Assembly: GCA_963422735.1 (NCBI GenBank)
Contig: OY730476.1
Coordinates: forward strand, 2,272,001-2,336,000
DNA from: Candidatus Latescibacterota bacterium
GTDB taxonomy: Bacteria > Latescibacterota > UBA2968 > UBA8231
Direction of reading: 5' to 3'
Length of the DNA: 64,000 nt
A model generated the notes under the pieces. The model saw only the letters and a program-made list of their open reading frames with translations, ran no database searches and was not told the DNA's origin. The translations under genes and the position numbers were made by a program. Positions within the stretch are counted from its first letter, which is position 1; each line of letters begins with the position of its first letter. Below are positions 4,426 through 61,148 of this stretch, in pieces.

Positions 4426-7107
4426 TTAGCGCAGCCCAGCGAAGATGGTTACAAACGTGAGGAAATTGGTCTCATCGCCTTGTTGCAACGCCCGGCGTTG
4501 CCAGCGCACACCGATCTTGGTAGAAAGTGCGTAGCCCTGATACTCGGAGCTATTGGTGAACTGAGTGGCCAAGGTCAGGGTAGTGAAATCCTCGACAAAG
4601 GCCGGCGGCAGCGGATCTGGCTTTTGTCGTAGGTTCCTAAAGACCTCCCACTCGATCCCCGACTCCGAGACGACTTGGCCGGGTATGAGATCGTACGTAC
4701 CGATTAAGAAAAAAATCTCCGACAGCTCATTGCGTTGCAGTGCCAAGGGATCCGTCGGGACTTGACGGGCGTACTGCTGCTTCCACTTGGGCGAAATGGC
4801 GATCCCGGCGAACGGCTCGTAGAAGTACTCCGCTCTCAGTATTACACCTAAGAAACTCTCGTCGCGATTTTCCCGGGACTGATTCCTGTGCTGAAAATAA
4901 TGGTCCCATTTGACTTTACCAGACACGTTCAGCGGCCGCAGGCGATGGATGGCAAAATCTAGGTACGAAGTGTTGATCATCGCGTTCTGGGCTATCAGGC
5001 GGTCCTGCACATCCTGCAGGCTCCCTGCCGAAAAGGGAGACTGGACCCACTGAATCAGCGCGTCGGGAATATCGTCGCGGGCGAAGCGCAAAAATTCCAT
5101 AAAGCGAAACTTAAAACCGCGCAATGGTAGGTCTTCCTGCCAAGTGAAAAGCCCATAGCTCGTCTGGTTCCGCCGCGCACTACCGATCAACCACTCGCGT
5201 AGATGCCCAACCACGACCTTGGAACCGGGCTGCATCTCAGCCCCCAAGTAGAGGTTGTAGCCCCGGTGGTCGCGCTTGTAGGGATAATCGGGTTCGGTAT
5301 CGTTTTCGAGGCGGTCTATGACGGTATTATTGTTCATGTCGGTGCCGAAGAGAAATTCGGGCGGATCGACATTGTAGCGCAGAAAGGGTTCGACGTAATC
5401 GGGCTGCAAATTGTCGTTCTGGTTAAAGTCGTTAACCAAGTCGTTGTTCTCGTCGAGACCGGGGAACACCTCGACATCGGCGGCGCGGGTCGTCTGCTGC
5501 CCCGGCACAAAACCACCCCCGGTAACGCGCCGACGCCAGTCGGGAAAGCGGTCTTGGTCGTCGTTGTCGTCGACAAACTCATAGGTGAAGTTAAGCTCAT
5601 CCTCGTAGTCAATAAAACCGCGCTGGTCGGGAATTACCATGGATGTGCCGTAGTTCGGATCCATGGAGAAGATCTCGCCATAGGCGAACCAAGGATAGGT
5701 CAACCGCGAGGCGGTAACGTAAAAAGCTTCGGCGCGGTCGGACGCTAGGGCCTGCCTCTTGACGATATTCTGGTTGGGGAACTTGCGGTGGTGGCGGTTG
5801 ACGTTGAATTCGGAGCGGAGATTGAATCCGGCAAGCTCGGAGACTTCAAAAGTAAAACCCATGATTTCGTTGGCCGTAGGCAGGCCGTACTGGAAGCGGA
5901 CGACCTGCTGGTTGGAGCCATCGCTGATATTGCCGTTGCTCCGCTTGACCGGCCGGAAGACCGTCTCGCCCGTGAAATTGGTCTGCATATTGGAGGTTAC
6001 TTCTATGCGAAAATCATTGGCCACCACCAGTTCGATATCGATCTTGCGGGCTTCTTTGAAATCGCTGATCTGGTCCTTTACGCCCGGGACGAAATCGCGT
6101 TCGACATCGTAACTGAGCCTCAGCACGTCGCCGCCGTTGGCCTCGAGCAAGCCCTGACGCCGCGTCCCTCCGTCAATCGAAGGTTTTATTTCTGGGTGCT
6201 CGACCTCGTCGATGAATATCCGTGCGCGGAACAGCAGCGCACCTCCGGTGTTGTCTTCGGGCGAATCGTCGCTGAGGCGGACGACGATGCGGCGGACGTT
6301 TTCCGCATTCAGGCGCCCTCCTAAGACACCCTTGAGGGAATTCTCCTCGACGCTCAAGCGGCTGTTCCCGTGGTTGGCATTGACGTACGTCAAGCCCAGC
6401 GTGGCGAAATCGCCGACTTGGGCGACTCCTCGCAATCCATACAAATTGGTGAAGACCGTCTCTCTGGCTTCGGAGATCTCGCTGTCGAGACGCTGGACAG
6501 CCGGATTGTCGATGCGCGAGGTAATGAAGGTCAAGGCGTATTTGTCGGACTGCATATCCCACTGAATACCGTCGAAGAGAGGTTTCGAGAAGGTCAGTGG
6601 CGTAAGCGTGGTCCGTAGCTGTTCGCCGACGGTCAACGCGGTGTAGAATTGCCCTTTGGAAGCCGAGGATATCAGGACTCGGTTGAACCAACTATTGAAT
6701 CGGGGATTTTTGAAAATGCTGCTGCCGAAATCGAGCGGGTGTTCCTGGCGCCAGTCGTAGATGCGCCAACCACGAGTGATATAGTTGCCGTACAGGTCGT
6801 AATAGCGATCGCCTTCCAAGAAGAGATTGACGTAGCGCTGGTAGTTGTCCCGGGCGTAGTTAGTGTACTCGTAGGTCTTCCATCCATAGAGATAAAGCAG
6901 CGTCTGGGGCACGTACCATTTCCGCATAACCGGATTTAGTGACTCAAAATCGACGGGCGTTCCCGTCGCTCTATACGGATTGAAGAACCCGCTCTGCAAA
7001 TCGGCCTTGAGTTTTAGTGGCAAGAGGGCGAGAAAGGCAAAGGACCAAATGGCTTTATTCATCGCGCTAGTTTCCCATCTCGATAGCGGCTTTGCATCGT
7101 GCATCAA
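4426..7107 (-). CDS. Family B large exported / putative outer-membrane protein with Asp-rich Ca-binding block
   Basis: Signal peptide (alternative start ATG 7062); RTTLTPLTF, DDSPED, YGLPT, VDDNDDQDRFPD, FPGLDENND, PDYPYKRDHRG; beta-strand C-terminus IFAGLR. Confidence 0.85.
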   Translation of the reverse strand: MMHDAKPLSRWETSAMNKAIWSFAFLALLPLKLKADLQSGFFNPYRATGTPVDFESLNPVMRKWYVPQTLLYLYGWKTYEYTNYARDNYQRYVNLFLEGDRYYDLYGNYITRGWRIYDWRQEHPLDFGSSIFKNPRFNSWFNRVLISSASKGQFYTALTVGEQLRTTLTPLTFSKPLFDGIQWDMQSDKYALTFITSRIDNPAVQRLDSEISEARETVFTNLYGLRGVAQVGDFATLGLTYVNANHGNSRLSVEENSLKGVLGGRLNAENVRRIVVRLSDDSPEDNTGGALLFRARIFIDEVEHPEIKPSIDGGTRRQGLLEANGGDVLRLSYDVERDFVPGVKDQISDFKEARKIDIELVVANDFRIEVTSNMQTNFTGETVFRPVKRSNGNISDGSNQQVVRFQYGLPTANEIMGFTFEVSELAGFNLRSEFNVNRHHRKFPNQNIVKRQALASDRAEAFYVTASRLTYPWFAYGEIFSMDPNYGTSMVIPDQRGFIDYEDELNFTYEFVDDNDDQDRFPDWRRRVTGGGFVPGQQTTRAADVEVFPGLDENNDLVNDFNQNDNLQPDYVEPFLRYNVDPPEFLFGTDMNNNTVIDRLENDTEPDYPYKRDHRGYNLYLGAEMQPGSKVVVGHLREWLIGSARRNQTSYGLFTWQEDLPLRGFKFRFMEFLRFARDDIPDALIQWVQSPFSAGSLQDVQDRLIAQNAMINTSYLDFAIHRLRPLNVSGKVKWDHYFQHRNQSRENRDESFLGVILRAEYFYEPFAGIAISPKWKQQYARQVPTDPLALQRNELSEIFFLIGTYDLIPGQVVSESGIEWEVFRNLRQKPDPLPPAFVEDFTTLTLATQFTNSSEYQGYALSTKIGVRWQRRALQQGDETNFLTFVTIFAGLR

Positions 7108-7119
7108 TCCACTGCCCGA

Positions 7120-9453
7120 CTAATAGACCAGATGGACGACGCGCTGTCGTCGCTCCGTTCTAGTGTCGGTCTCTAGCTTGGCGTCCAGAATGTAGATACC
7201 GGGAGGTAACAATAGATCGTTCTCATCCCGACCATCCCACACATAGTGAGTCTGATCCACCTGCTCAGTGCTAGCGACTAAAGCACCACTCAAGTCGTAA
7301 ATCACAACCTTGGGTTGGGCAGAGGTTTTTACCACTAGCAGGCGTAACTCCAGTCTGTCGTTGATGCCGTCTCCGTTCGGCGTGACAATCGCCGGGATCA
7401 CCTCCAATGCGCGGATGCTGTGCTCCTCTTGGGCGATCTCGGGCACAAATACCGTCAAAGCCCCTTGGTCTTCCGGCTGGATCCCCTGGCGAATATCGGG
7501 CTGCGTCGTCGAGCTTACCCAAGCATCGAAAGTAGCAGCATCGGCCAAGAGGCGCAGCGGCAGATCGACTGCGATGCTGTCCCCGCGGACCTGTTCGGGC
7601 AAGTCGATCACTACCGAATCCCCTCTGGACTCCACCTTCAACGGTGCGATGCGGCGATCCCCTATCCGCAATTGTACCTCGCCTTCGAGGGGATTCGGCA
7701 AATCGAGCACTAGGCGGTTGAAACCCCGATCGGCAGGTCTAGTGCGACCTCCGAGGCGGAAGGTAAAAACAGTCCGCGAATCGAGGGCCGCTTCGCGTGG
7801 GGAAACGCTGGCGAAAACCCCACCGCCGATGAGCGGATCGTCGAAGTCGAGGGCGATCTCGCGCAGCGTCGGTGCCGCCTGCGGATCTTCGGTCTGCAGG
7901 CGCACCTCCACTTGGACAAATTTCCTCGGCGTGGGCGAGCGGAAGACTTCCCCTGACTCCTTGTAGGCCGAACTCCACGCACTCCAGTCGGCACCGGCTT
8001 TCGCCACTTTTACTTCGGGCAATTTCTGGCTAGCCGGCAGTTTGTCCCAGCGTCCTTTGGGAACTTCTCGACCGTTTTTGTCGTAATAGAATATCTCTTC
8101 GTCCAACGCATTGCCGGTGCGCGTGCGAATTTCTATGCGTGTCCCGGCCGTTGTCTCCGCCTCCCAGCGCAGCCGGCGCAGGCTTTTGGCACCTACCAGA
8201 TCGATGAAATTAGAGGTCATCACCACTGCAGCCGGATAGCCTTCGCCGTAGAGGAAAACCTCGAATAAATGGAAAGCGGTTTCTCTGTTGGTGGGGGCCT
8301 CGTGGTGATAGAACAGATAGCGCACCTTGCGGGTGGGAAAGCGGAAATCGAAGTTGCGGTTTCTCGTGCCCGCGCTGCTCAGCGTTTCGTTATTGACGAA
8401 GCTGAGCAACTGGTAATCGACGGGACTCTGGAGCCGGTCTTCCCCCTCGGTGGGGATCGGCGTACCATCCGAGGTCAACAGTTCAAAACCGGACTGATTC
8501 CTGTACGAATTCACCCCCATCGTAGCAAATCCCGGCGGCGGCTCCACCATCGTTAGCTGATCGATCCAGAAAGTGGCTCCCAGATCCCATTCAAACCAAT
8601 CGCCTTTATCGCGCCAGTCGAGGTCGCCCCGCGAGGTCAGGGTCCACCACGTGGCTGCAGTTCCATCCATGATATTGGCGATGGTGCGCGGGTCGCGCCC
8701 GGTCCTTATGTCGCCTCCCCGCTCGATAGTCCCCGGCGCAATATTGTCGCCTATGGCCTCAACCTCGATGGCTGCCAGCGCCGCATTTAGGCTCTTGGCA
8801 TGGGCGACGACGCGGACGTACTGGATGGACATATACTCCAAGGAATCGCTGGACATGGTGGCCAAATGATTTCCGGTGGCGTTTCCCAATTCCGGCGTCG
8901 CAAGGTCGTATTCTATCACCGTCTCTCGGCTGGGCTGAGTCGTACCGCCCACCCGGTCGTAGCGAAAAACATCCTGGCCCGTGAGAAAAGGCGTTCCCTC
9001 GGTGACGAAAACGGAAAACTCCCGCAATGGCCGCGCCCCATCAGTATCGGGAAAGGTCAGCCGTATCTTTTTGGCTTGGACGAGGCGGCCCAAATCGATC
9101 TCGATCCACCAATCGTCGAGCGGGGCCTCTTGGCCAGGTTGCCACCAAGTGGTGGCAGCGCCATCGAGAATATGGGCAGCTTGGTCAATGTGGGTCCCCG
9201 CACTGCGGATCCCTCCCTGCACCTCTTTTCCCTTGGCGTTTGGGTGGAAAAACTCAGCCGCGTCGGCGACGGCGTCTATATTGCGCCGAAAGCGTCTGAG
9301 GGCCACGCTACCATCTGCTGCCAACGACAGCACTCCTTGTGGAAAAGTCCATTGCCGCCACTGGTCTTGGCTGTTTATGAGCAGCGTTCCGGCTTCCGTT
9401 TCCCCAACTGGGAAGAGTGCCAACAGCATCAGCAGGTATGTCCGTTTCAACAT
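7120..9453 (-). CDS. Family A exported protein, long form with two discoidin-like domains
   Basis: Signal peptide; two 'W(W/F)E.DLG' discoidin-like motifs; RTRTG, WSAWS, VTPNGDGIND, WDGRD...PGIY; ends HLVY. Confidence 0.85.
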   Translation of the reverse strand: MLKRTYLLMLLALFPVGETEAGTLLINSQDQWRQWTFPQGVLSLAADGSVALRRFRRNIDAVADAAEFFHPNAKGKEVQGGIRSAGTHIDQAAHILDGAATTWWQPGQEAPLDDWWIEIDLGRLVQAKKIRLTFPDTDGARPLREFSVFVTEGTPFLTGQDVFRYDRVGGTTQPSRETVIEYDLATPELGNATGNHLATMSSDSLEYMSIQYVRVVAHAKSLNAALAAIEVEAIGDNIAPGTIERGGDIRTGRDPRTIANIMDGTAATWWTLTSRGDLDWRDKGDWFEWDLGATFWIDQLTMVEPPPGFATMGVNSYRNQSGFELLTSDGTPIPTEGEDRLQSPVDYQLLSFVNNETLSSAGTRNRNFDFRFPTRKVRYLFYHHEAPTNRETAFHLFEVFLYGEGYPAAVVMTSNFIDLVGAKSLRRLRWEAETTAGTRIEIRTRTGNALDEEIFYYDKNGREVPKGRWDKLPASQKLPEVKVAKAGADWSAWSSAYKESGEVFRSPTPRKFVQVEVRLQTEDPQAAPTLREIALDFDDPLIGGGVFASVSPREAALDSRTVFTFRLGGRTRPADRGFNRLVLDLPNPLEGEVQLRIGDRRIAPLKVESRGDSVVIDLPEQVRGDSIAVDLPLRLLADAATFDAWVSSTTQPDIRQGIQPEDQGALTVFVPEIAQEEHSIRALEVIPAIVTPNGDGINDRLELRLLVVKTSAQPKVVIYDLSGALVASTEQVDQTHYVWDGRDENDLLLPPGIYILDAKLETDTRTERRQRVVHLVY

Positions 9454-9468: not shown

Positions 9469-11481
9469 TCAATACGCTACCGAGACCGAACGAAATTGCT
9501 CTGATGCTTCCTTGTCTGCATCTGCCTTTATGTGCAGGAGGTATATGCCGGGGGGGACCAACTCCCCTTGGTCGTCGCGTCCGTTCCATTGCTCAGTATA
9601 AAAACCCTTGTTGAATTTCCCGCGCACCAAGACTCTGACCTGCTGGCCTGCAAGGGTATAGACGCCGATCTCGGTGGCGGTATCTTCGACGCCCAGTAGC
9701 GTGAATGCGATGTCGAGTTCGTCGTTGATGCGGTCGCCGTTGGGAGTCAGGACCGACGTCGCCAACGCGATCTCAGAGAGCGTTTCTAGGGAGGTACCCG
9801 TGGCGAAAACGCGGACATCGTTGCTATTGAGATCTGCACTCGCGTCGCCAGGATCAATAGACTGGGGCAGGTTTTCCCCCTCCAACTCCAACACCTCTCC
9901 GAGGAAGTGGGTAGTGAAGTCCAATAAGGCCGTGCGAAAGGTAAGCCGTAGGTGCTCCTCTCCATCGGCGCGCACCACTTTATGCGAGGGAAAATACACG
10001 GCTAAAACCCCGTCGGCGAAGCGGACGCTGTCGGGGGCTATCTCCTCGAGTGGCTGTCCGATTTCTAGCTTGACGAGCTCGGCCTCGGCTACGGTATTGA
10101 GTTTGATAGCATCAAAGCCTAGCTGGCCGTCGGTGCCGAAACTAGCTAAGAGATCGTAGATAAATGTCGTCTCTTGGCCAGCCGGCGCTTCGGGCACCCG
10201 GTCTTCTCCCCCGGCCAAACCCACCTCGCCGACGATGGCCTCCACGAGGAGCGGCGAGTACTCAATCGCTACGGATTGTACCTGGCCGAAGGTGTGGAAA
10301 TCCTCGGCTACCATATTGAACTGAAGCTGCATATAACGCCGTGCGTCCGGCGAACGGAGCAATTGGCCGGGAAGGTCGTAGGGCGTTGACCAGAAACTCC
10401 AGTTTTGCTCATCGAGCTTGATCGACGATTTGTCGCCGGGGCGGTCTCCCTGAACAAAGGGCGATTTCTCCAGTGCTTTATTGTAAACCGCTTCTTCTAC
10501 TTTCCGTTCCGTGCCTATATCGCTGATGATGTAATACGCCTTCGGAGTATCGTCCTTGCCGGTGCGGGTTTCCACTACCAAGCTAATCGGCGCATCCGGC
10601 GACGGAATGGGTTCTGGTTCGCCCGGCGTTTTGCGGAACTTTTCAAACTCCCAAAAAATGCGCCCGAAATTCACCGGTACTCCCAGGTCGATAACCGATG
10701 TGAGATAACTAGTATCCGGCGCAAAACCCTCGCCATACACCTCAACCTCGCTCAGCATGTACACCTGTTCAATCAGATTAAAGGAAATGCGCAAAAAACG
10801 CAGAGTCTGCGCGGGGAAGCCAACATCTATAACGCGGTCGGAGTTGACAAAGGTGCGGAACAGTACCTGCTCTAGGGTGCGAGGTCTGTCTTCTTCGCTG
10901 AGCAGGAGAAAATCCGCAGGTTCTCTGGCACCCGATATTTCATACGCCCGGGGAAAGCGTTGCTTTCTCAAGCCCCCGGATTCGTCCAGTCCGGTAGCCG
11001 GAGGATAGAATACCACGCGATTTACGGGAATGGGAAACGCAAAGTCAAAAGTATATATATCTTCCCGGCGACCCCCACCCACCCTAGACCAACGCAGCTT
11101 GGTCACCGTAGCGAGATCGCCGTCAATGACCTGAAAGGGTGCCGTGTGGTAGAGGGGCAGAATACTGGTCCAGAAACGAGGCGTTACCCCCAGTTCAAAA
11201 TCGTCCCTTTTGGGCTGCTTGCCTAGCTGCCAAGTGCTGCCCAGAATCGTAGTATATTCACCGCTCTCCGTGCGGGGACCGGCGATGATATTCTGATGCG
11301 GCAAAAGTTCGAGGGGCTGTAGGGCACCATTGACCGAGACCGTCTCCAAGCCGACGGCGCGCTCACCGAGTTCGTCCCAAGGGACCCCGCCCTGTCCGAG
11401 AACCAAAGTGTGGGTCTCGGCCCGCAGCGGCTCGACGCCGCTCAACAAGACCGCAGCAACGGCAATGAAAGTAATTTTCAT
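9469..11481 (-). CDS. Family A exported protein
   Basis: Signal peptide; EVEVYGEGF, TRTGKD, NWSFWSTPY, LTPNGDRIND, WNGRD...PPGIY; ends SVAY. Confidence 0.85.
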   Translation of the reverse strand: MKITFIAVAAVLLSGVEPLRAETHTLVLGQGGVPWDELGERAVGLETVSVNGALQPLELLPHQNIIAGPRTESGEYTTILGSTWQLGKQPKRDDFELGVTPRFWTSILPLYHTAPFQVIDGDLATVTKLRWSRVGGGRREDIYTFDFAFPIPVNRVVFYPPATGLDESGGLRKQRFPRAYEISGAREPADFLLLSEEDRPRTLEQVLFRTFVNSDRVIDVGFPAQTLRFLRISFNLIEQVYMLSEVEVYGEGFAPDTSYLTSVIDLGVPVNFGRIFWEFEKFRKTPGEPEPIPSPDAPISLVVETRTGKDDTPKAYYIISDIGTERKVEEAVYNKALEKSPFVQGDRPGDKSSIKLDEQNWSFWSTPYDLPGQLLRSPDARRYMQLQFNMVAEDFHTFGQVQSVAIEYSPLLVEAIVGEVGLAGGEDRVPEAPAGQETTFIYDLLASFGTDGQLGFDAIKLNTVAEAELVKLEIGQPLEEIAPDSVRFADGVLAVYFPSHKVVRADGEEHLRLTFRTALLDFTTHFLGEVLELEGENLPQSIDPGDASADLNSNDVRVFATGTSLETLSEIALATSVLTPNGDRINDELDIAFTLLGVEDTATEIGVYTLAGQQVRVLVRGKFNKGFYTEQWNGRDDQGELVPPGIYLLHIKADADKEASEQFRSVSVAY

Positions 11482-14550: not shown

Positions 14551-16455
14551 TCAATAGAACACGCTGAGCGTCCTAGCTAGCACCTCTTCCCCCGACTCGG
14601 CCTCGGCCGCGATGCGCACTATATAAGCCCCTGGAGGTACCAGATTGCCGATCGCATCGCGGCCGTCCCAGGTTTGTTCGTAGGCTCCGGCGGACAAGGC
14701 GTCAAAAAAAAGCTGACGCACCCGGCGTCCAGCCAGATCGTAGATGCCGATGGAGAAATCGACCTCCTGCACCAAACGCAAGACTTGAAAAGTAATGCGA
14801 CTCTCTTCGTTGACGCCGTCCCCATTGGGGGTACACACCGCCGGTACGACCTGCATAGTGGATAAAATCCCACCCTCTGCGGCATTGGAGAAAAAGACCC
14901 GGCTAGTGTTGGTGCCAACACTCGGACTGGCATCGCCGGCAGCGACGGGCTGGGGTAAACGACCTCCAGAGTCGATTAGGTGGCTCGCCAAGTTAGTAGC
15001 ATAGACCAGAATAGCCGTGCGAAAAGTAACGCGCAGCGGCTTGTTGTTGTTCGGCCCGATCCGGTTCGATGGGAAGGACAGCATCAGCCCACTCGCATTC
15101 GCGTGGACGCTGTCGGGCACCACCTCGACGAGCGGCTCACCCATCTCGAATTTGAGCAACGTCGGTTCGCTCTGGGTTGCGATGTGCAAGCCATCGAACC
15201 CCATCTGCGCGTCGCTGCTAAATTCTGCCCGAATGTCATAGGTAAAAAGAGTATCTCGACCTGCTGGCACCGCAACTATACCCCCTGGGGGGAACGGGTC
15301 TGCGACAACGGCGACCTCGCCTACGGCGCGGTCGGCCAGAGGCAGTGAGTAGCTAACAGCCAAGCTGTCTATCTGGATGAGATCGGTAGAGGTGCCCCGA
15401 AAAAAAAGCTGGAAATCAAAATACCTTCTTGGGCCAGGCAGTTCGAGGGGATAGGTAAAAATACCTGTCGAATCAATGCGGATCGGATTCTTCCAGGTCC
15501 AGCTTTCGGCATCGTTGAGGATGGAACCGCGAAAATCCTCCGCCAGCTTGGCATAGGCGTCTGCGGTCGTGGGTTGCTCTGAACCCGTTTCGCGATCGAC
15601 GATTTCAAAATGGACTAGGGGAGTCTCATCAGTGCCGTTGCGCAGGGTCAGGTCCACGGACGCCGCGGCTGTCGCTGTCGGGAGCAGGACGCCGTCTGGC
15701 TGTCGGCGCAACTTGGTGGTTTTGACGGAGAGCGTGCCGAGAATCGCTGCTGTGGGCAATTCAATAAGCTTGGAAATATAAGTGCCTTTGGGCACGAAAC
15801 CTGTGCCAAAGGCTTCGATTTCCGCTATTTCAAATGGATTGGGCGAAAGAATGCGCAGCCTGATAAAACGGATTAGCTGCACTGGAAAGTCGATTGTCGC
15901 TCTCGGCTCGGTCTGCAAATCAACGCGTTTCAAGACCTGATAGCGCGGCTCTCCTTGCTGGGTATAGTCGCGGCCATCACTCACAGAAAGTTCAAAGGCC
16001 CTAGGAAAGTCGTCGGGAAAGGATGGGCTGGGAAAGTAGATCAGACGATTGGCCGGAAAAGAAGCCCCTAAGTCCAAAAAAAAGATGCGACCAGTCTGAT
16101 CGGTGCCCAGCCCTTTGAATCGGCCGCCGGAAGAAGTCTGGTCATCGCCATCGACTAGGACGGCGGCAGAGCCTTCGATGGCGGCGTTGTCCCAGATGTG
16201 GGCACTGCCTTCGGTGACAAAGTCCAACGTAGGCGAGTCGCTCCAATCGAGTGTGCGGAGGATATTGTCGGTTTCTGCCAAGCCGATAGGACGGATCAAA
16301 GCCGGGTTCTGCAGATCTACTCCTCCTGCGACCGCGGCCTGAGAATCCCAAGAAAGCCCATCCCCACCGACTCTATAGCTTTCAACCTGTGCTCCGAGCG
16401 GCGCATTCAGCCAACATACTCCGCATAAAACGAGGCTGCCTGTGAGCAGTCTCAT
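14551..16455 (-). CDS. Family A exported protein
   Basis: ATGA overlap with the upstream gene; signal peptide; LDLGASFPANR, EIEAFGTGF, CTPNGDGVNE, WDGRD...PPGAY; ends SVFY. Confidence 0.85.
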   Translation of the reverse strand: MRLLTGSLVLCGVCWLNAPLGAQVESYRVGGDGLSWDSQAAVAGGVDLQNPALIRPIGLAETDNILRTLDWSDSPTLDFVTEGSAHIWDNAAIEGSAAVLVDGDDQTSSGGRFKGLGTDQTGRIFFLDLGASFPANRLIYFPSPSFPDDFPRAFELSVSDGRDYTQQGEPRYQVLKRVDLQTEPRATIDFPVQLIRFIRLRILSPNPFEIAEIEAFGTGFVPKGTYISKLIELPTAAILGTLSVKTTKLRRQPDGVLLPTATAAASVDLTLRNGTDETPLVHFEIVDRETGSEQPTTADAYAKLAEDFRGSILNDAESWTWKNPIRIDSTGIFTYPLELPGPRRYFDFQLFFRGTSTDLIQIDSLAVSYSLPLADRAVGEVAVVADPFPPGGIVAVPAGRDTLFTYDIRAEFSSDAQMGFDGLHIATQSEPTLLKFEMGEPLVEVVPDSVHANASGLMLSFPSNRIGPNNNKPLRVTFRTAILVYATNLASHLIDSGGRLPQPVAAGDASPSVGTNTSRVFFSNAAEGGILSTMQVVPAVCTPNGDGVNEESRITFQVLRLVQEVDFSIGIYDLAGRRVRQLFFDALSAGAYEQTWDGRDAIGNLVPPGAYIVRIAAEAESGEEVLARTLSVFY

Positions 16456-17198
16456 TCCTGCGCCCAATCTGCCGGAGGCTGATACCCCCTGAATACCTCG
16501 CGCTGAAAATGGTACGCCAGATCTATGGTCTCGACGGGCTGCTGCCTGAAGTCGAAGCGAATTGCCACGTCGCTGAGGTGAACGGTAAACTCATTGATAT
16601 CGTGGGGTAACGCGGGAAATACCACAAACCCCTCAACTTCTTGGCCACTGAAAATGTCTTCGTCTGGATATATGGTGCGGGTCAGAATCTCTCTCCGCTC
16701 CCGAAAGACACTGTAGGCATTGCCCGCATACCCGGGAATCATGGAACCATAGAATTCGAGGATATCCGTTCTGTTGAGAGGATCGTACTCGCGGCCGGCC
16801 TGTTGGGAGACCAGCGTTATTCGGGTGGGGTCCAGATGTACCTTGGGATACTCGTAGTTTTTCACCTGGACCGAAAAGACGGTGTACTTTGGTGGCGTGT
16901 AGGTATCGCCTAGCGGCTTCCAATTGCCAAAGGTATATGGATTCTTGGAGTTGGCACCCGCCGCAGAGTAGTCGGCAAATTGACGGTTCAGCTCTTCGTC
17001 CGCCATGGGGCGCAGAGAGATTTCGAGGCGGTTGAAAACGGCGGTAATGGTCCCGTCGTCCTCAACCGAGGCATAGGCTTCCTGGCGATTTTCGGGCGCG
17101 GGTGCGATCAGCCCGGGGAAATAGCGACCACAACCAACCAGCACCAGCAGAACCAAGGCACCCAAGCATGGACTCATCGCAAAGCGCTTCCCAGACAT
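16452..17198 (-). CDS. Conserved hypothetical lipoprotein (family C)
   Basis: Lipobox LVGC; NPYTFGNW, TVFSVQVKNYEYPKVHLDP; paralog at 46567-47306. Start uncertain (17198 or 17177). Confidence 0.75.
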   Translation of the reverse strand: MSGKRFAMSPCLGALVLLVLVGCGRYFPGLIAPAPENRQEAYASVEDDGTITAVFNRLEISLRPMADEELNRQFADYSAAGANSKNPYTFGNWKPLGDTYTPPKYTVFSVQVKNYEYPKVHLDPTRITLVSQQAGREYDPLNRTDILEFYGSMIPGYAGNAYSVFRERREILTRTIYPDEDIFSGQEVEGFVVFPALPHDINEFTVHLSDVAIRFDFRQQPVETIDLAYHFQREVFRGYQPPADWAQE

Positions 17199-17268
17199 CC
17201 TACAAAATGCAAAAGCGGGAAGTAGAGATATGTACACCTCTCCTCCCCGCTGCTGAAATGGGAAAATT

Positions 17269-22192: not shown

Positions 22193-22200
22193 GATTGTTT

Positions 22201-22245
22201 GTGGTCAGTGGTCAGTGGTCAGTGGTTAGTGGTTAGTGGTTAGTG
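22201..22245 (+). repeat. Heptamer tandem repeat (GTGGTCA)3(GTGGTTA)3
   Basis: Directly visible; related degenerate copies at about 808-825 and 35984-36019. Confidence 0.85.
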
Positions 22246-22269
22246 TGGGGTGGTGGGACTGATCGCTAA

Positions 22270-44422: not shown

Positions 44423-44835
44423 TCCTCCTGTTCCCGCACAAAAGCGATGCCCTCAACCCCGACTTCTTTGGCTTCATCCACCACAAACACTACGTGTTTC
44501 TGGGCGCACTCGCCGTCTGCCTGAATGATGATATTCTCATTGTTGGCCTCTTCCATGGCCGTGACCAGCCGAGCCGCCAATACCGCCGGTGCCACGTCCT
44601 CACCCTTGATTTGAATCTCGCCATCGCGGTCCAGCAAGACGTTGATATCTTTCTTCTTTTTTTCCGTCGCTTCGCTTTCGGCCGGCATGTCCACTTCCAG
44701 CCCTTTGGTGTGTAGAAACACCGTGGTTACCATGAAGAAGATTAGCAGCAAAAAGACGCAGTCAATCAGCGGAGTCATGTCCGGGCCGCCTTCTGCGAGA
44801 AAGCTCTCGGACCGATGTTTTCGGTGTCTGGCCAT
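44419..44835 (-). CDS. exbD: Biopolymer transporter ExbD/TolR
   Basis: DMTPLIDCVFLLLIFFMVTT motif; IIIQAD. Confidence 0.92.
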   Translation of the reverse strand: MARHRKHRSESFLAEGGPDMTPLIDCVFLLLIFFMVTTVFLHTKGLEVDMPAESEATEKKKKDINVLLDRDGEIQIKGEDVAPAVLAARLVTAMEEANNENIIIQADGECAQKHVVFVVDEAKEVGVEGIAFVREQEE

Positions 44836-44859
44836 GGGGTTAACTCCTCCCAGCAGGAG

Positions 44860-49175: not shown

Positions 49176-49790
49176 ACGTACGTATCCGCGCCCGTGCCAA
49201 GGAGCCTGCACGGCATCTCGTTTATCGACTCGACACCGTTGGCCGTATGCAATCCCCATCGTAATCATCAGCACCGACTCTTTGCCGGGCGGGCGCAACG
49301 GGGCAAAAGCTCGACCGGCTGGTTTTTCGGTTTCAAGCTGCCTCGGGTGTTCAATGATCGAGGCCAATTGCTCAACCTGGCATTAACCCCAGAAAACGTC
49401 AATGATCGGAAACCCGTACTCGGTCTGGTGCGAGACCTGTTTGGCAATCCCTGCTTTCGCAGGGACAACGAGGCTGCATTTCCAAAAAGTTGGGCAACCC
49501 ATTGAGAAAGCTATTCGACCTACTGTTGATTACCAAGCTCCGATCCAACATGAAAAATCAACGCCTGCCGATCTCAGACAAACTCCTGCTGCACAAACGA
49601 TCCTTGATCGAAACCATCATCGATCAACTCAAAAGTATCTCCCCAATTGAACACACCATACATCGCAGCCTGGTCAACTTCAGGGTCAATCTCCTATGTG
49701 GGTTGATTGCCTATTGCCACCAACCTAAAAAACCAGCTCTAAAGATCGATGGACGACTCCAAATCGAGGCCGCTTAACCCGAACTCACGT
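49176..49790 (+). mobile_element. IS982-family transposase remnant (3' half, frameshifted) with right end
   Basis: GISFIDSTPLAVC, RGKSSTGWFFGFKL, N.NDRKPV, KRSLIETIIDQLK, HRS..NF.VN; terminal ttaacccgaactcacgt. Confidence 0.85.
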
Positions 49791-55225: not shown

Positions 55226-58018
55226 ATGCGCGGCGCGAACCGGCATCTAGCCTTCCTAGCCTTGGCCCTGGCGTACGGCGCGGCAGTGGATGCCCAGTTG
55301 ATCATCCGCAACACCGAGCCGTACCGCAACTATGCGTACGAGGGATACCGGCCGTATGAGAGTCTGGTATTCGGCCGCGATCGCACACCTCAGTTCGACA
55401 ATATGGGGCAGTTCGTGATGAACGGGGTCAATGTCTTTGAACTGCAGGAATTCCGCACCTTGCAGACCACGCCCGGAAGCATCATCGGCAAGGAGCGGCA
55501 GTACGGTGACTTTCTCAATCGCCTGGTCATTGCCAACGACTCGTACAAAGGCGTGGACACCCGCCTGATTGTCGGCGATCGCATCCGCACCAAATTCACT
55601 CCGCTGACCCTCGACTTGGCGGCTATGAACGGGCTCCGGGTGGACAGCAACCTCAAGGACGCCTCGCTGGTGCTGGCTGTATCGCGCGTCGATCGACCCA
55701 TTTTCGAGGCCATCAGAAATGCCGACTTCGTGGTCCACGGCCGCGAGGGTTCGCAGTTCAGGCCGTCGTGGAGTACCTATTTGCTGGGCGCCGACCTGCG
55801 CACCAAGCGGCCGGGCCTAGACCTGGGCGTGAGCTGGGTCAACCAGTACCGCACCGACAGTTTTAAGACTCTTGGCGAGAACAGCTTCAAAGGGACCCTG
55901 CCCACCACCGGGGCTCCCCCCCTATGGCTGGTGTTGCGCGTGGCCGACCAAGACCCCAACGACGCCATCGGCGTACGGGTCCGCAGGACGGCCGTCGCGC
56001 TCAACGGCCGCCGCTTGATGCACGTGCCCGGGCCCTACAACAAACTCGACACGGGCGCGTTGCGGCTCACGGTCACCGAACACCCGGACCGCACCATCAT
56101 TCCGCCGATTTTCCGCGATTCAAGCAACGACCTAGCCATCAACTTTCCACACGTCGAGCCGACCCCGCAGGGAGTTTATGAAACTCGGGGCGAGGGGTCG
56201 CTGCTGTTCTGGTTCGAGGTACCTTCCTCCTTTGTCGACGGGCTCGATACCCTCATCGTCAACAAAGCCGATATAGAGATCGATGTGGCCGGGGATTATC
56301 TGCTCGAATTGTCGGAGATATTCGATGGGGCCTCTTTCAACCCAGCAACATATTTCTACACCGCCGGGCAGGCGCGGGGCAAGCCCGACAACCTCGACAA
56401 TTTTCGCCGAGTGCGAGTGCGCTACGGCCGGGAGACCGGGCGCACCCTAGCTAGCGTACATGCCAATATAGACATCAAGGGGTACTCGCTGCGGACTGAG
56501 TACGTGCGCAATTTCTCGTACCGCGCCTATCCGGCCCTGCTGGGCACCTTGGGCCGGTACCAGCTCGATCAGAGCCAGGCTTGGTTCGCCGTACTGCGGC
56601 GCGATCTCGGGCGCTTCAGTTTGGGCGGCGAAGCCTTTAACATAGACGCAGAGTACACCACCCGCCTGTCCGTGCAGGATGATTCGTACCAGACCTATTT
56701 CCAGTTGATCAACAGCCCCTTCCAGTTCCCAACCAATTTCCAAGAGCCCAGACTGCCGGATTTCCTCGGCCCCAACCGGGCCGACGCCACCCGCACCCTC
56801 GAATTTGATACAGTGGACGACAACGACGACAAAGACCCCTTCCCCGACACCTTTTTCCTGCGTAAAACCACCAGTCTGGAGGGCGGACATTTCATCGAGG
56901 ATCCCGACGGCATCTTCCCTGGACTCGACGCCGATTTGAATGGCCGGCCCGATATCAACGAGAACAACAACCGCATCCCAGACTACTACGAAGCCTTCCT
57001 GCTCTACGAGGTCAATCCCGACGCGTACGACTACGGCGAAGATACCAATAACAACGGCGTCATCGACGATCGCGAAGACGATTTGAAGCCCGATTACCCG
57101 TACGACCAGGACCGACGAGGGCTGCACGGCTTTGGCAGCTACCGGCCGCGTTCGGGCATGAAAGTGACCTTGGGCTACCACCGGACTTGGGCGCCCTTTG
57201 ACGGCGACCAAGCCGAAGTGTACTACGGCCGCTACGAGTACGAACGCCGCCTGCCCTTCCTAGTTGAGATCTACGCCGTCGAGCGGCTCAAGAGGGTGCG
57301 GGACGGGATTGCGGACGAAGTCTTTGGCCTGGGGCGCGATCCCATATACTTCACCCCGGATATAATCCCCTTGCGCCTGCCCACCGAGGAGGAATTGCGC
57401 CATCCGCTGGGCACATCGCGGCTGCTGGTCGATCCACTGCTGATGCGCGATAGTTGGGTCAATACCTTCTATATACGCACCCTCTTCATCCGCGTACCCA
57501 ATCTCAATGTCGAGGTGAGCCTGAAGTCGGAAAATAACTTCCAGCACCGTACGCCCCTCCAGCCGGACAACCGCATCGCCGATCTGGCCACGGTCTTCAA
57601 GGCCGATTATCTGTGGATGCCGTGGAAGCAGTTGCGGGTGATGCTGCAGTTCAAGTGGTTGCGCCAGCGCCTCGGCGACGAGGGCCAGGTACTGCCGATT
57701 GAAGAGGACTTCGTCTATCCCATCTTGCGGATGGAGTACCCGATTTCGAACCGCACCGCCGTGAAGGTGGGTGCCCAGGGGTTGCCTTTCCTCAAGAGCC
57801 TGTACCGCAACAACGCGGCCCCGGGAGTGGATTTCGACGGGGAGGACTACGTGGCCTTGGTGACCAACAAATCCTCGTACACGGGCTACCAGATCAATGT
57901 CGAAGTGGGTTATCAGAAGAGCACACGCAAGTTCAAGGACCGGTCGCGCCACGACCAGGATATCGACTTTTCGCGCGTTTTCCTGCGCATGATCGCCGGC
58001 CTGAGCCCCCTGTTTTGA
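55226..58018 (+). CDS. Family B large exported / putative outer-membrane protein
   Basis: Signal peptide; VGDRIRTKFTPLTL, VDDNDDKDPFPD, FPGLDADLNG, PDYPYDQDRRG; ends MIAGLSPLF. Confidence 0.85.
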   Translation: MRGANRHLAFLALALAYGAAVDAQLIIRNTEPYRNYAYEGYRPYESLVFGRDRTPQFDNMGQFVMNGVNVFELQEFRTLQTTPGSIIGKERQYGDFLNRLVIANDSYKGVDTRLIVGDRIRTKFTPLTLDLAAMNGLRVDSNLKDASLVLAVSRVDRPIFEAIRNADFVVHGREGSQFRPSWSTYLLGADLRTKRPGLDLGVSWVNQYRTDSFKTLGENSFKGTLPTTGAPPLWLVLRVADQDPNDAIGVRVRRTAVALNGRRLMHVPGPYNKLDTGALRLTVTEHPDRTIIPPIFRDSSNDLAINFPHVEPTPQGVYETRGEGSLLFWFEVPSSFVDGLDTLIVNKADIEIDVAGDYLLELSEIFDGASFNPATYFYTAGQARGKPDNLDNFRRVRVRYGRETGRTLASVHANIDIKGYSLRTEYVRNFSYRAYPALLGTLGRYQLDQSQAWFAVLRRDLGRFSLGGEAFNIDAEYTTRLSVQDDSYQTYFQLINSPFQFPTNFQEPRLPDFLGPNRADATRTLEFDTVDDNDDKDPFPDTFFLRKTTSLEGGHFIEDPDGIFPGLDADLNGRPDINENNNRIPDYYEAFLLYEVNPDAYDYGEDTNNNGVIDDREDDLKPDYPYDQDRRGLHGFGSYRPRSGMKVTLGYHRTWAPFDGDQAEVYYGRYEYERRLPFLVEIYAVERLKRVRDGIADEVFGLGRDPIYFTPDIIPLRLPTEEELRHPLGTSRLLVDPLLMRDSWVNTFYIRTLFIRVPNLNVEVSLKSENNFQHRTPLQPDNRIADLATVFKADYLWMPWKQLRVMLQFKWLRQRLGDEGQVLPIEEDFVYPILRMEYPISNRTAVKVGAQGLPFLKSLYRNNAAPGVDFDGEDYVALVTNKSSYTGYQINVEVGYQKSTRKFKDRSRHDQDIDFSRVFLRMIAGLSPLF

Positions 58019-58019
58019 T

Positions 58020-61000
58020 ATGAAACGGCAAGTGATCATCGACATTGACCAATTGGCCAAGCTCGCCTGTGCGTGGCTGGGGGCGACCCTGCTGCTGGCC
58101 GGGGGTTTGGGGGCCCAGTCGGCAGCAGACACGCCGGAGCAGCCCACCTTGGGGCCGCAGCGGCTCATGCCCAACCAGAGCTTTGTGGGGCGCTACAGCG
58201 AGACGCTCTACCAGAATTACGGCTTTGCCGAATACCCCCGGCTACCGCCCTTTACCAATACGCTGCGGCCCTTTTACAGCGATTTAGGGGATTTCCTCAT
58301 CTACGGCTCGAATTCGGTCAACTGGCGGGAGCGCCGGGGATTGGGTGCCCAGCGCGGATTCTCCTCCATAGGCGAACGGGGGAGCCACGGTCAGGCCGGG
58401 GTCTCCTTTGAACGGCTGTTCAACAATGTCATCGTGGGTACGGACGGCACCGACGCTTGGCAGGCCAAGGTCATCTGGGCCAATGAGATCCGCACTAAGT
58501 TTACGCCCCTGACCTTCAAGATGGCCAATCTCGACGGTTTGCGATTCGACATGGGCACCGAGCGGGACAGTTTTTCGGCCCTGATTTCGAGAAACCGCCA
58601 CACGGGCGGCGGCGGGGTCATCCCCGGTGCTCTCATCGGCGGGGCGCACTACGAGCGCCAAGTGGGTTTTCTCCACTTTGGCGGCACTTTTGTCAACGCC
58701 CACCAATTCGAGCCGCTGATGTCGAGCAAAGACCTGTCCTTCAAAGGGGTTGCTGGGGCGGCCCAGAACGCCCCAGCTCTGCTGGCCATCCGCATTGCCG
58801 ACGACGCTCCCGGCCTAGGGGCGACTGGGGCGGTGCTGCACCGAGTGGACGTATATGTCAACGGCGAGTTGCTGCCGGCACTCGAGCCCTTTATCGTCCG
58901 CTTGGATACGCGTGGGGACGAGCGCCAGCCCTACAGCCAAGATCTGCTCCGTTCAGGCGAGCGCAAGCCCCTTCCCCGCACCGGCAACGACTACCAGTCG
59001 ATCAACCGGGGCGCCATCGCTAGCACGTACGACCCGTACATTAATTACGCGGCCTTTGACGCGGATGTCTATTACCGGGGCTACGAGTTCCCCTTCTGGA
59101 TCGGCCATCTCTACTACCGCGACTTCAAGTTGTTCGGCCCGGATTACGTGATCAACGCCGACCGCAAGGGCGAAGACCCCATCACCGTGCACGAGGAGTT
59201 CGCCCACGAAGTGGCCGAGCGCAGCGCGGAAAACCCCGACGGACAGTTTCTCGGTCTGTACACCCGGGCCGATCTGCCGCAAGCCTTTGACGGCCGGGAG
59301 TACGGTATTCTCTACGTCGATCTGGAGCCCTTTGGCGAGTGGATCGAGTCGGTTGACGTCGACCTGTTCATCTCGGGCGATTACCACGTCGAACTGTCGG
59401 AGATCGATATCGGGGGTATACAGCCCAACGAGCCCGAGTCGAATTACCGCGACAAGTACCGCTATGCCTCCTTCTTCCGCACGGTGGCGCGGGCCGACGG
59501 TACGCCATCGCCGCAGGAGCCGGTCGAGCGGGTGCGGGTCAAGGCCGGTACGCCCACAGGGGTGCGCCTGTACAGCGCCAATGTATACGGCGTGCTCAAA
59601 GGTTTTGAGATCAACGCCGAATTCGCCCGCAGCAACAGCTATTCCCAATACGTGAGCGGTCCTCCCGGGGTGCGGGTGCCCGGGGACGCGCTCAGCATCA
59701 ACGCCCTCGACCGCGAGGCGCGTCCCGGCAAGCGCGGCACTATCAGCGACAACGCCTTCTACGTCACGGTGAAGCGCGACTTTCCTCTGTGGGGCTTCGG
59801 CGGCGAATACTTTTCCATGGGGCCGCACTACAATACTGAGCTGCGCTCTTTTATCGGCCGCGACGAAGGTTGTTGTACGGGGAGTCTGATCACCCAAAAC
59901 GACGCCCTCATCCACCGGTTGGTCGAGGACAACGACGACAACGATCGCTTCCCCGATAGCTGGTACACCAACCACGCCAGTCCGGGCATGTTCTTCTTGG
60001 GCCAGTCCGACATTGACGGCATTTTCCCGGGCCTAGACGAGGACAACGACGGCTATCCAGACCAGAACAAGAACATCAACGGCACGCCGGACGATATCGA
60101 GCCCTTCCTCATGTACGATGTCGACGCCCAGGTCTACGACTACGACCTCGACATGAACCACAACGACTTCCTCGACGCGCGAGAGAACGACACCGACCCG
60201 GATTATCCGTACGATCCCGACTTGCGCGGGCTGCACGTGTACGGCCAGTTCAACCCAGTGCCCGGTCTGACTTGGTCAGTGGGCTTGATGAATGCCGAAC
60301 AGAATGCCGGCGGGGGGCCCAGCGACGTACTCTACACCCGCTTGACCTACTGGCGTACAGTACCGGCGGTGGGCCAGTTTTTTGCCGTTGCCTCGCTGGA
60401 GGAAGTGGAGGATGGCGTGGAGGATCCGCTGAGCGTGTACAGCGACCGGGTGCTGACCACGGCCGAACTATTCGAACTCGATTTCCCGGGCTTCCAGCGC
60501 AATATCCAGCTCGCCCCCTTTGTCGAAGAGGAGCGCGATGACCCACTGCTCTTCAAGGACAGCAGATACTTGCGCTTTTTCACTGACGCCCGTTGGAATG
60601 CGATCCCCCGGCTCAATATGCACAATAAAGTCAAGTACGAGATTAATGCCCAGCGCGAGGGCGAACTCTTCGATGGCACCTTCCAGGAGAGCGAGCGTCT
60701 GAGCCGCTGGGCCATGATGCACAAGGTTGACTACACTTGGCCGCTGGCCGATCAGTTGACCCTTTTCGCCGGTTTCAAATTCCGCTACCTCAAGGAGTGG
60801 CGACGCAGCCTGGAGTTGCCCACCTTGCACGAGCGCAATCTGATCCCGCTGACCAAGCTGGAGTACCGCCTGACCAGCCGAACCCGATTCCAGCTAGGCG
60901 TCCAGGGACTGGGGTCGCTTCTCCCCTATAGCGTGAACGATCTGGCCGACGCACGCCGGGACTTCGATCAGAGCGATATTGTGTTTATGCTGACCAACGA

Positions 61001-61148
61001 TTCAAAGTACTTCGGCTATCTGATCTCGACCAATATGGGTCTCCGCCGCCGCGTCAAGGAGTTCGACGATCTGGATGTGGCTGGCGAGGCCAATGTGGAA
61101 TTTATCGCCGCCTATATAAATGTGATTCTGGGATTTGAACACGAGTGA
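58020..61148 (+). CDS. Family B large exported / putative outer-membrane protein
   Basis: Signal peptide; EIRTKFTPLTF, DDAPG, VEDNDDNDRFPD, FPGLDEDNDG, PDYPYDPDLRG; ends VILGFEHE. Confidence 0.85.
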   Translation: MKRQVIIDIDQLAKLACAWLGATLLLAGGLGAQSAADTPEQPTLGPQRLMPNQSFVGRYSETLYQNYGFAEYPRLPPFTNTLRPFYSDLGDFLIYGSNSVNWRERRGLGAQRGFSSIGERGSHGQAGVSFERLFNNVIVGTDGTDAWQAKVIWANEIRTKFTPLTFKMANLDGLRFDMGTERDSFSALISRNRHTGGGGVIPGALIGGAHYERQVGFLHFGGTFVNAHQFEPLMSSKDLSFKGVAGAAQNAPALLAIRIADDAPGLGATGAVLHRVDVYVNGELLPALEPFIVRLDTRGDERQPYSQDLLRSGERKPLPRTGNDYQSINRGAIASTYDPYINYAAFDADVYYRGYEFPFWIGHLYYRDFKLFGPDYVINADRKGEDPITVHEEFAHEVAERSAENPDGQFLGLYTRADLPQAFDGREYGILYVDLEPFGEWIESVDVDLFISGDYHVELSEIDIGGIQPNEPESNYRDKYRYASFFRTVARADGTPSPQEPVERVRVKAGTPTGVRLYSANVYGVLKGFEINAEFARSNSYSQYVSGPPGVRVPGDALSINALDREARPGKRGTISDNAFYVTVKRDFPLWGFGGEYFSMGPHYNTELRSFIGRDEGCCTGSLITQNDALIHRLVEDNDDNDRFPDSWYTNHASPGMFFLGQSDIDGIFPGLDEDNDGYPDQNKNINGTPDDIEPFLMYDVDAQVYDYDLDMNHNDFLDARENDTDPDYPYDPDLRGLHVYGQFNPVPGLTWSVGLMNAEQNAGGGPSDVLYTRLTYWRTVPAVGQFFAVASLEEVEDGVEDPLSVYSDRVLTTAELFELDFPGFQRNIQLAPFVEEERDDPLLFKDSRYLRFFTDARWNAIPRLNMHNKVKYEINAQREGELFDGTFQESERLSRWAMMHKVDYTWPLADQLTLFAGFKFRYLKEWRRSLELPTLHERNLIPLTKLEYRLTSRTRFQLGVQGLGSLLPYSVNDLADARRDFDQSDIVFMLTNDSKYFGYLISTNMGLRRRVKEFDDLDVAGEANVEFIAAYINVILGFEHE

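Follow-up and report, generated by a model that had tools for sequence, protein, structure and literature searches.

A family of very large outer-membrane barrels encoded beside secreted lectin-like proteins in Latescibacterota

The stretch of DNA analysed here (the window) comprises 64,000 nucleotides from Candidatus Latescibacterota bacterium (assembly GCA_963422735.1, contig OY730476.1, positions 2,272,001-2,336,000 of the forward strand), whose genome of 4.95 Mb is a single contig. Within it lie five genes, here called Family B, that represent an undescribed family of very large outer-membrane barrels encoded beside secreted proteins of a sugar-binding type (Table 1). A preliminary description had reported five paralogous open reading frames (ORFs) with an Asp/Asn-rich block; all five were present, with lengths of 893-1042 amino acids (aa).

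Five paralogous genes and their family

The five copies aligned over their whole length using MAFFT, with 25-43% identity to copy 1 and 78 invariant columns, 28 of which fell within the 105 residues V512-G616 of copy 1 that make up the Asp/Asn block. Every motif listed in the preliminary description was recovered in the order given; GE.F....Y.T was exact in four of the five copies, and copy 2 reads GEAY. The described C-terminal ends (IFAG, IYAG, VYIG, MIAG and VILG) were also confirmed. A profile built from the five copies recovered each of them at E = 0 and, when run against the ORF set of the genome, identified 34 full-length copies (at least 870 aa) and 4 fragments. The paralogy of the five copies is far above chance. 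All five carry a Sec-type signal peptide ending in A-x-A or AQ, which is legible in the sequence of copy 1 (MNKAIWSFAFLALLPLKLKA), and none of the five has a lipobox. Cysteine is nearly absent (median of 0 per protein). In copies 3 and 4, the ATG codons at 52570 and 55226 lie inside the longest frames and directly precede the signal peptides, and they are therefore probably the true starts.

A profile search of 1.84 billion representatives returned 1090 clusters at E <= 0.001, of which 336 reached E <= 1e-30; Family B is a mid-sized closed family and no outlier of a huge one. The homologs listed were all annotated as 'hypothetical', and the named ones among the matches listed came from Candidatus Latescibacteria. 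The five proteins had been said to belong to no named family, and this held: there was no Pfam, NCBIfam or Protein Data Bank (PDB) sequence match over threshold. At E <= 1, the Pfam matches were limited to SlpA_C, below threshold, on copies 3 and 5, an NCBIfam scan of the five copies gave nothing useful, and a PDB sequence search with a 54-member profile found no solved relative (one chance row, E 0.67). DUF6029 (PF19494), a lead from a language-model search (ESM-Atlas, 0.89), was rejected after no hidden Markov model match was found on the five copies or genome-wide at E <= 1. A literature search, which was not exhaustive, found no papers that join Latescibacteria with type IX secretion systems (T9SSs) or with such barrels.

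Members of Family B were found among the searched genomes of Latescibacterota and in metagenome-assembled genomes related to them. Contigs that are 94-97% identical to copy 1 were labelled either 'Gemmatimonadetes bacterium' (L001, L003, L015 and others) or 'Candidatus Latescibacterota' (L002, L004), and one 3-kb contig with a family member (L047) was filed under a Thermoplasmata archaeon. The Gemmatimonadetes and Thermoplasmata labels are probably labelling or binning errors, and the apparent range beyond Latescibacterota therefore needs care. The four short fragments (G000:C1:946158-946733 and three other places), one of which has an in-frame TAG, are probably decayed copies.

Table 1 Positions of the barrel genes, their Asp/Asn blocks and neighbouring features in the window.
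Feature	Position	Strand	Remark
Barrel copy 1, P0001	4426..7107	(-)	893 aa longest frame; probable start Met16; last-but-one gene of cassette
Barrel copy 2, P0002	40634..43360	(-)	908 aa longest frame; copy used for structure model
Barrel copy 3, P0003	52519..55224	(+)	901 aa longest frame; ATG at 52570; first barrel of three-barrel module
Barrel copy 4, P0004	55217..58018	(+)	933 aa longest frame; ATG at 55226; second barrel of module
Barrel copy 5, P0005	58020..61148	(+)	1042 aa; third barrel of module; longest insert domain
Asp/Asn block, copy 1	5239..5649	(-)	conserved loop
Asp/Asn block, copy 2	41429-41821	(-)	conserved loop
Asp/Asn block, copy 3	54043-54429	(+)	conserved loop
Asp/Asn block, copy 4	56738-57142	(+)	conserved loop
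Asp/Asn block, copy 5	59847-60251	(+)	conserved loop
Lectin-like protein, 777 aa, T9SS-type C-terminal domain	7120..9453	(-)	directly upstream of copy 1; CHU_C 38.6 bits, F5/8 type C
Second lectin-like paralog, 670 aa, copy 1 cassette	9469..11481	(-)	cargo profile, Pfam
Third lectin-like paralog, 638 aa, copy 1 cassette	14551..16467	(-)	set apart by opposite-strand PcfJ-like gene
Lectin-like paralog near copy 2	33360-35480	(-)	cargo profile, Pfam
Lectin-like paralog near copy 2	36030-38114	(+)	cargo profile, Pfam
Lectin-like protein, 733 aa	50312..52513	(+)	opens three-barrel module
Seventh lectin-like paralog	897-2864	(+)	cargo profile, Pfam
TPR protein, 463 aa	3027..4418	(-)	directly downstream of copy 1; Pfam
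PMT_2 (GT-C-type) + TPR protein, 737 aa	38319..40532	(-)	downstream of copy 2; Pfam
Long TPR protein, YfiO/BamD-like stretch	61135..63999	(+)	closes three-barrel module; crosses window end, 1098 aa in genome
Two ~300 aa proteins opening copy 1 cassette	16452-17351, 17269-18177	(-)	no family match
Further ~300 aa cassette-opening protein	32341-33243	(-)	
PcfJ-like gene, 518 aa	11720-13276	(+)	opposite strand inside copy 1 cassette
SBP_bac_5 binding protein + two permeases	20107-24255	(-)	between two cassettes
ExbB gene + two ExbD genes; DUF4159 protein	44006-45606, 47315-48016	(-)	upstream of copy 2
Short overlapping DUF6785 + DUF6784 ORFs	48020-49367	(-)	two or three ORFs

Cassettes of barrels and lectin-like cargo

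Most of the functional information on these genes is carried by their genomic context, which lay beyond the view of the preliminary description. In the window's own genome, all 24 neighbourhood rows contained at least one paralog of the lectin-like cargo genes within 9 kb. The common layout (24 of 24 rows) runs along one strand and comprises two proteins of ~250-300 aa without a match, 1-3 lectin-like genes, 1-3 barrels and a downstream gene. A cargo gene lies directly upstream of 18 of the 34 barrels, and 8 more barrels are the second or third members of tandem sets. The genes directly downstream (n = 23) encode proteins with tetratricopeptide repeats (TPRs; 10), two-rotamase peptidyl-prolyl isomerases (PPIases; 3), FG-GAP/ASPIC (1), DUF6785 (1) and DUF5683 (1) proteins, and unmatched proteins (7). 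When 80 loci of other genomes were examined, 58 had a full same-strand cargo gene directly upstream of the barrel, 6 were cut by a contig end and 16 differed, 11 of the latter sharing a second fixed layout in which the lectins lie downstream; a cargo gene was found within 8 kb in 72 of the 80. Pairs of unmatched ~300 aa proteins recurred upstream of cargo genes in other loci. Further downstream (40 proteins, 7 loci), PPIase, TPR and FG-GAP/ASPIC genes followed in series, and after them came genes for SBP_bac_1 proteins with permeases and for GFO/IDH/MocA, xylose-isomerase-like, DHDPS, sulfatase and gamma-glutamyltranspeptidase proteins. The uptake and sugar genes of this list (all but the last-named) were seen after cassettes in 4 of the 7 loci.

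The cargo proteins form a large family of their own. A profile built from the seven lectin-like ORFs of the window matched 84 ORFs genome-wide over more than 350 of the 642 positions of the model. At the Pfam cut-off, CHU_C was found in 4 of the 7 window proteins, FlgD_ig in 5 and at least one of the two in 6, together with F5/8-type-C matches, and the C-terminal tail starts with a 'TPNGDGxND' block and ends in '...VAY'. The 777-aa neighbour of copy 1 was modelled as an all-beta chain of domains (predicted local distance difference test (pLDDT) 85.7, predicted template modelling score (pTM) 0.73). Matches to this model were fucolectin, the neuropilin b1b2 tandem discoidin domains, pairs of family-32 carbohydrate-binding modules (CBM32) and immunoglobulin (Ig)-like macroglobulin domains, with no enzyme fold among them.

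Barrel and neighbouring lectin co-diversify: across 18 pairs, the distances between barrels and those between their upstream lectins were correlated (Mantel r = 0.59, a value that none of 2000 permutations reached), and in 12 of the 18 the nearest neighbours agreed. The two families also occur together. Among 121 genomes of the phylum, both were present in 66, the barrel only in 6, the lectin only in 0 and neither in 49, at thresholds of 1e-10 for the barrel and 1e-40 for the lectin, counts in which related genomes are not independent. Within the GTDB family to which the window belongs, all 40 of 40 genomes had the barrel; it was found in 0 of 29, 0 of 13 and 0 of 2 genomes of three other GTDB families, the first two of which belong, in their listed genomes, to the same class. 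First-look barrel candidates reached 79 per genome.

Copies 3, 4 and 5 form a module that follows one lectin gene and precedes the TPR protein of 1098 aa. This order of genes was observed at 8 loci in 6 genomes, window included, the three barrels being about 900, 935-975 and 1040-1068 aa long. A closing gene of ~1080 aa was found in 6 of the 8, its TPR nature being shown by Pfam for the window copy and assumed for the other five. In a FastTree phylogeny of 41 barrels with Shimodaira-Hasegawa (SH)-like support, module positions 1, 2 and 3 each formed one clade with support of 100, and 0 of 500 label shuffles were as good. Branching within the three position clades was congruent, and two-barrel loci split by position likewise. 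As these clades are position-specific and congruent, the tandem barrels are old and non-redundant. The three barrels may form a hetero-oligomer, an arrangement that, if true, would be rare among barrels.

Contigs from RNA libraries (two studies and one run guessed to be RNA) hold pieces that are 90-100% alike to the barrel and the lectin, the range for the two studies being 90-99%, and one contig spans the junction between the two genes (6737-7315). This is a weak sign that both are expressed, with DNA carry-over a possible source; contigs of this kind cannot show a transcript, and uncovered bins carry no meaning.

Several neighbouring genes deserve mention. The PcfJ-like gene on the opposite strand inside the copy 1 cassette is no recent insertion, because a 518-aa ORF sits at the same place in about 5-6 of 9 orthologous loci that include the upstream flank. 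The secreted proteins of ~300 aa that open the cassettes, of which one has a weak CBM9 match (E 0.0015) and the others none, may be a third undescribed cassette family. The pairing of PMT_2 and TPR downstream of copy 2 has a paralogous counterpart beside another barrel of the genome. A gene for ExbB and two for ExbD lie upstream of copy 2, separated from it by a 640-nt gap with no TonB gene, and a DUF4159 protein is encoded two genes further up. A functional link of the ExbB-ExbD-ExbD set to copy 2 was rejected: in the single clear ortholog context that we examined, that of a protein 69% identical from another genome, the set is missing, and we treat the adjacency as incidental. The short overlapping ORFs listed last in Table 1 match DUF6785 and DUF6784 in succession, piece by piece; at another place in the genome, the pieces are joined in one 646-aa protein that follows a barrel, and the window copy looks split or decayed. 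The SBP_bac_5 protein and its two permeases constitute a peptide/oligosaccharide ATP-binding cassette (ABC) importer.

Predicted fold, topology and the Asp/Asn-rich loop

We modelled copy 2 using AlphaFold2 with a 54-row alignment (mean pLDDT 71.3, pTM 0.66). DSSP assigned 23 strands of 8-25 residues and one short strand (162-165) over ~780 residues; the strand count, lumen and any plug were judged from the DSSP string alone, in which no plug was visible. Connections between strands alternate, with turns of 2-4 residues on one side (205-207, 248-250, 449-450, 498-499, 646-649, 682-684, 744-745 and 872-873) and long loops on the other. One long loop holds a confidently modelled beta-rich insert (residues 265-423, pLDDT about 90), whose length in the 34 paralogs varies between 138 and 301 residues. 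A pLDDT of 40-60 was obtained for the acidic loop (residues 510-634), and the conserved, aromatic-rich N-terminal stretch of ~80 residues is poorly modelled (below 60). In outer-membrane proteins, tight turns are usually periplasmic. By this rule, the insert domain and the acidic loop would both be placed on the cell-surface side, and the predicted topology would be one of ~24 strands with both termini in the periplasm.

All 44 Foldseek matches to this model at E <= 0.001 are outer-membrane barrels, among them FepA, SlpA, BtuB, FimD, MtrB and SusC, with TM-scores of 0.09-0.25. VIA-align, which does not depend on Foldseek, ranked FimD first (Z 10.6, 311 residues aligned) and SlpA second (Z 9.3), followed further down by porins, Tom40, LptD and SprA at a Z of about 8; the note that comes with the tool describes a Z of 8-10 as common among large barrels of whatever kind. 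The proteins had earlier been proposed to be large outer-membrane beta-barrels, and the hallmarks of this fold class that were looked for were found: signal peptides in five of five copies, an even series of long antiparallel strands (~24 in the model), short turns on one side and matches to barrels by both methods, along with the near absence of cysteine. The model supports a large outer-membrane barrel that matches no specific family.

Two other functions are suggested by individual fold matches, and both draw on matches of a generic kind. In the first, which we regard as very unlikely, the barrel would be a pore devoted to export or assembly, resembling an usher or serving as a private translocon, through which the beta-rich neighbours or a polymer would cross the outer membrane to be put together on the surface. 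The 24-strand usher FimD is its best structural match (PapC reaches Z 8.2), a beta-rich domain is inserted in the barrel, the neighbours are rich in Ig-like and beta-sandwich domains, and PPIase chaperone genes lie downstream; yet no usher Pfam family matched, Z values of this size are common, and an export route exists already in the T9SS-type tails on the cargo and the SprA, PorU and PorV-like proteins of the genome. The insert, moreover, follows strand 7 and would lie on the outer, long-loop side by turn parity, whereas ushers, which also have periplasmic N and C domains, have their plug on the periplasmic side, after strand 6 and before strand 7. At least as improbable, in our estimate, is a structural role in the envelope like that of SlpA, with large barrels, perhaps trimeric, by which a surface layer composed of the beta-rich neighbours would be tied to the outer membrane. 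Weak Pfam matches to SlpA_C on copies 3 and 5 (E 0.014 and 0.083), SlpA structures among the fold matches (Foldseek 8ae1 at 2.7e-6, VIA-align 7zgx at Z 9.3) and S-layer chains among the weaker fold matches of the cargo (ranks 42-50) point this way, and three distinct barrels in a fixed order would suit a heterotrimer. Against it, SlpA_C reaches 14.3 and 11.7 bits, far short of the 35-bit cut-off, TM-scores are 0.14-0.17, Pfam found no SLH or coiled-coil part in the five copies, and 34 diverged copies, each with lectins of its own, are ill-suited to one layer.

The acidic loop is the best-conserved part of the protein: across 34 paralogs, 31 of its 125 columns are at least 90% conserved and its mean conservation is 0.62, compared with 0.42-0.52 in the other regions. 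Every one of the 34 copies contains 2-4 D-x-[DN]-x-[DN]-x3-[DE] motifs. Such motifs are of the general DxDxDG calcium-loop kind, and their presence in each loop makes calcium binding plausible. The block had been likened to thrombospondin type-3 repeats, and as a family label this failed, with TSP_3 matching none of the five whole proteins (E <= 1) and none of the five excised loops (E <= 10). EF-hand and dockerin labels were likewise rejected, having no Pfam match, and of the excised loops only that of copy 3 gave a weak FG-GAP match. Family B shares with the DxDxDG calcium loops of thrombospondin type-3, FG-GAP and dockerin domains the motif itself, whereas its block has a fixed frame of its own: V(E/D)DNDDxDxxPD, FPG(L/W)D and PDYPY. 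Over the DNA of the block in copy 1 (5434-5601), the RNA-library contigs stack 3- to 10-fold, with many loose ends on both sides, as expected if reads from numerous paralogs and relatives share this conserved stretch.

Proposed function and comparison with known systems

Together, the barrels and lectins probably build cell-surface capture devices, and the proteins of these cassettes have probably not been studied as such. We favour a reading, to which we assign a probability of roughly 0.55, in which the barrel is the cognate outer-membrane partner of the neighbouring lectins, acting as a docking platform and possibly also as a channel; it would be an analogue of PorP/SprF or SusC and a member of neither family. 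According to passages in PMC9143113, Bacteroidota proteins whose C-terminal domain (CTD) is of type B stay bound to a cognate, adjacently encoded PorP-like barrel, and PorP-like genes often lie beside TPR-bearing PorE-like genes. The cassette described here repeats this cargo-barrel grammar with a barrel that is three times larger and unrelated in sequence, and the cognate-partner reading is therefore the most likely one.

Parts of the export route that this reading calls on were found in the genome. SprA scored over the cut-off (611 bits, summed in one 2140-aa frame), as did PorU (632 bits); a PorV-like gene adjoins PorU and reached 152 bits, below the cut-off of 250. No PorP/SprF protein (PF11751) passed the cut-off genome-wide, the best score being 18.3 bits against 22.3 in a gene outside the family.

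In the proposed mechanism, the lectins, with their tandem discoidin/CBM32-type domains and a T9SS tail of the uncleaved, type-B-like kind, would be exported through a SprA/PorU/PorV-type T9SS and would dock on their cognate barrel as SprB does on SprF. The docked lectin and barrel would then constitute a glycan-capture complex at the surface. Two or three tandem barrels would act as non-redundant subunits, docking or calcium binding could take place at the invariant acidic loop that the copies have in common, and the specificity of each cassette may come from its lectin domains and the variable insert. The barrel may also pass captured substrate to the periplasm by a logic like that of SusC/SusD; genes for ABC sugar importers and for enzymes that modify sugars are often found nearby.

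The same neighbours could speak for a barrel that is mainly an uptake channel, like SusC without a TonB plug, importing oligosaccharides that lectins held by other means capture nearby, with the acidic loop or the N-terminal stretch gating the pore. We think this possible but unlikely. A ~24-strand barrel is far larger than an anchor needs, the cargo is lectin-like with no enzyme fold, ABC sugar importers and sugar-modifying enzymes follow the cassettes, and a peptide/oligosaccharide ABC system lies in the window itself. SusC/SusD pairs occur many times per genome, a multiplicity that the 34 barrel copies recall, and the neighbouring PPIase and TPR genes would suit barrel assembly. However, none of the five copies matches a Plug or TonB-dependent-receptor domain, and the 16 Plug-bearing receptors of the genome all lie elsewhere, with no Family B member among them. 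The ExbB/ExbD genes are not kept beside the copy 2 ortholog, the DSSP string shows no plug, and in the loci scanned the core cassettes contained no glycoside hydrolase.

A number of points weigh against the cognate-partner reading. Docking is proposed from gene order, co-diversification and analogy, and block (segmental) duplication alone would also make barrel and lectin co-diversify. Stoichiometry varies, with 1-3 cargo genes to 1-3 barrels, and neither of the genes adjoining copy 2 is a cargo gene. Assignment of the cargo tail to type B is tentative, as the NCBIfam type-A and type-B CTD models scored below cut-off on all seven window copies. GldK/L/M/N were not confirmed in the genome: GldM had no match, with control genomes silent too, and GldK gave only sub-threshold partial matches. 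The barrel is no PorP/SprF homolog, having no PF11751 match, ~24 predicted strands against 14 and no cysteine in its tail. In the model, pLDDT falls below 60 in the Asp loop and over the N-terminal 80 residues, and the strand count, the lumen and any plug are read from the DSSP string alone.

Should the cognate-partner reading be correct, it would show how this phylum, uncultured but widespread, arms its surface to seize polymers, and the pairing of T9SS cargo with a cognate barrel would then be a rule that reaches past Bacteroidota, to barrels of a different size class. A bolder version, which we consider speculative and rather doubtful, is a third and independent solution to the capture and uptake of glycans at the Gram-negative surface, beside TonB-dependent receptors and SusCD, in which T9SS-exported tandem lectins dock by uncleaved tails on plug-less 24-strand barrels, some of them obligate hetero-oligomers of two or three, with an invariant calcium-loaded Asp/Asn loop as docking site or gate and no TonB. 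The two families make up a large share of the coding space of the genome (34 barrels of ~900 aa and 84 cargo ORFs), and roughly a thousand protein clusters annotated as 'hypothetical' can now be given a name. Family B also offers a new large-barrel architecture with a fixed acidic loop that is open to a calcium or docking test.

Among known systems, the closest in gene order are the PorP/SprF barrels with their type-B CTD cargo (SprB-SprF, PG1035-PorP). In both, an outer-membrane barrel gene lies directly downstream of a gene for a surface protein with a T9SS tail of the uncleaved kind, many cognate pairs occur per genome and a TPR-bearing gene often adjoins; passages in PMC9143113 indicate that the PorP/SprF barrel is thought to hold the cargo on the surface. 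Family B barrels likewise lie beside genes for cargo with a putative type-B CTD (a cargo gene directly upstream at 58 of 80 loci in other genomes and of 18 of 34 copies in the window's own; CHU_C over cut-off in 4 of 7 cargo proteins of the window). The barrels themselves differ. PorP/SprF proteins are FadL-type barrels with 14 strands in ~300 aa, whereas Family B has a predicted ~24 in ~900 aa, and PF11751 matched none of the five copies (E <= 1). SprF has twin cysteines in its C-terminal tail, according to PMC12635249; cysteine occurs in the last 30 residues of 0 of 34 Family B copies. An hhalign comparison of Family B with the PorV-like, FadL-type protein of the genome gave a probability of 0.2%. 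Family B further differs from PorP/SprF in two large insertions predicted at the surface, one of them invariant and Asp-rich, and in up to three distinct barrels per locus, and its TPR neighbours lack an OmpA_C domain.

The SusC/SusD/SusE/SusF loci resemble these cassettes in their many paralogous copies, in combining a large barrel with surface glycan binders of beta-sandwich, CBM-like fold and in having sugar importers and enzymes nearby. In contrast to SusC, Family B has no Plug (PF07715) or TonB-dependent-receptor domain; its partners are T9SS-tailed rather than lipoproteins, no SusD-like helical protein is present and glycoside hydrolases were absent from the core cassettes scanned. The 22-strand TonB-dependent fold is represented among the Foldseek matches by FepA and BtuB at TM-scores of 0.16-0.25, with ~24 strands by DSSP in Family B. 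The ushers FimD and PapC, which include the best structural match, are similar in strand number and in a beta-rich domain within the barrel, but they share no sequence match, the Family B insertion would lie on the other face by turn parity, and the neighbouring genes encode T9SS-tailed proteins and no PapD-type chaperones or pilins. SlpA of Deinococcus (a 30-strand barrel, PF21620) is also a very large barrel with weak matches in sequence and fold; Family B differs from it in scores below cut-off, in having no SLH domain and in its massive paralogy.

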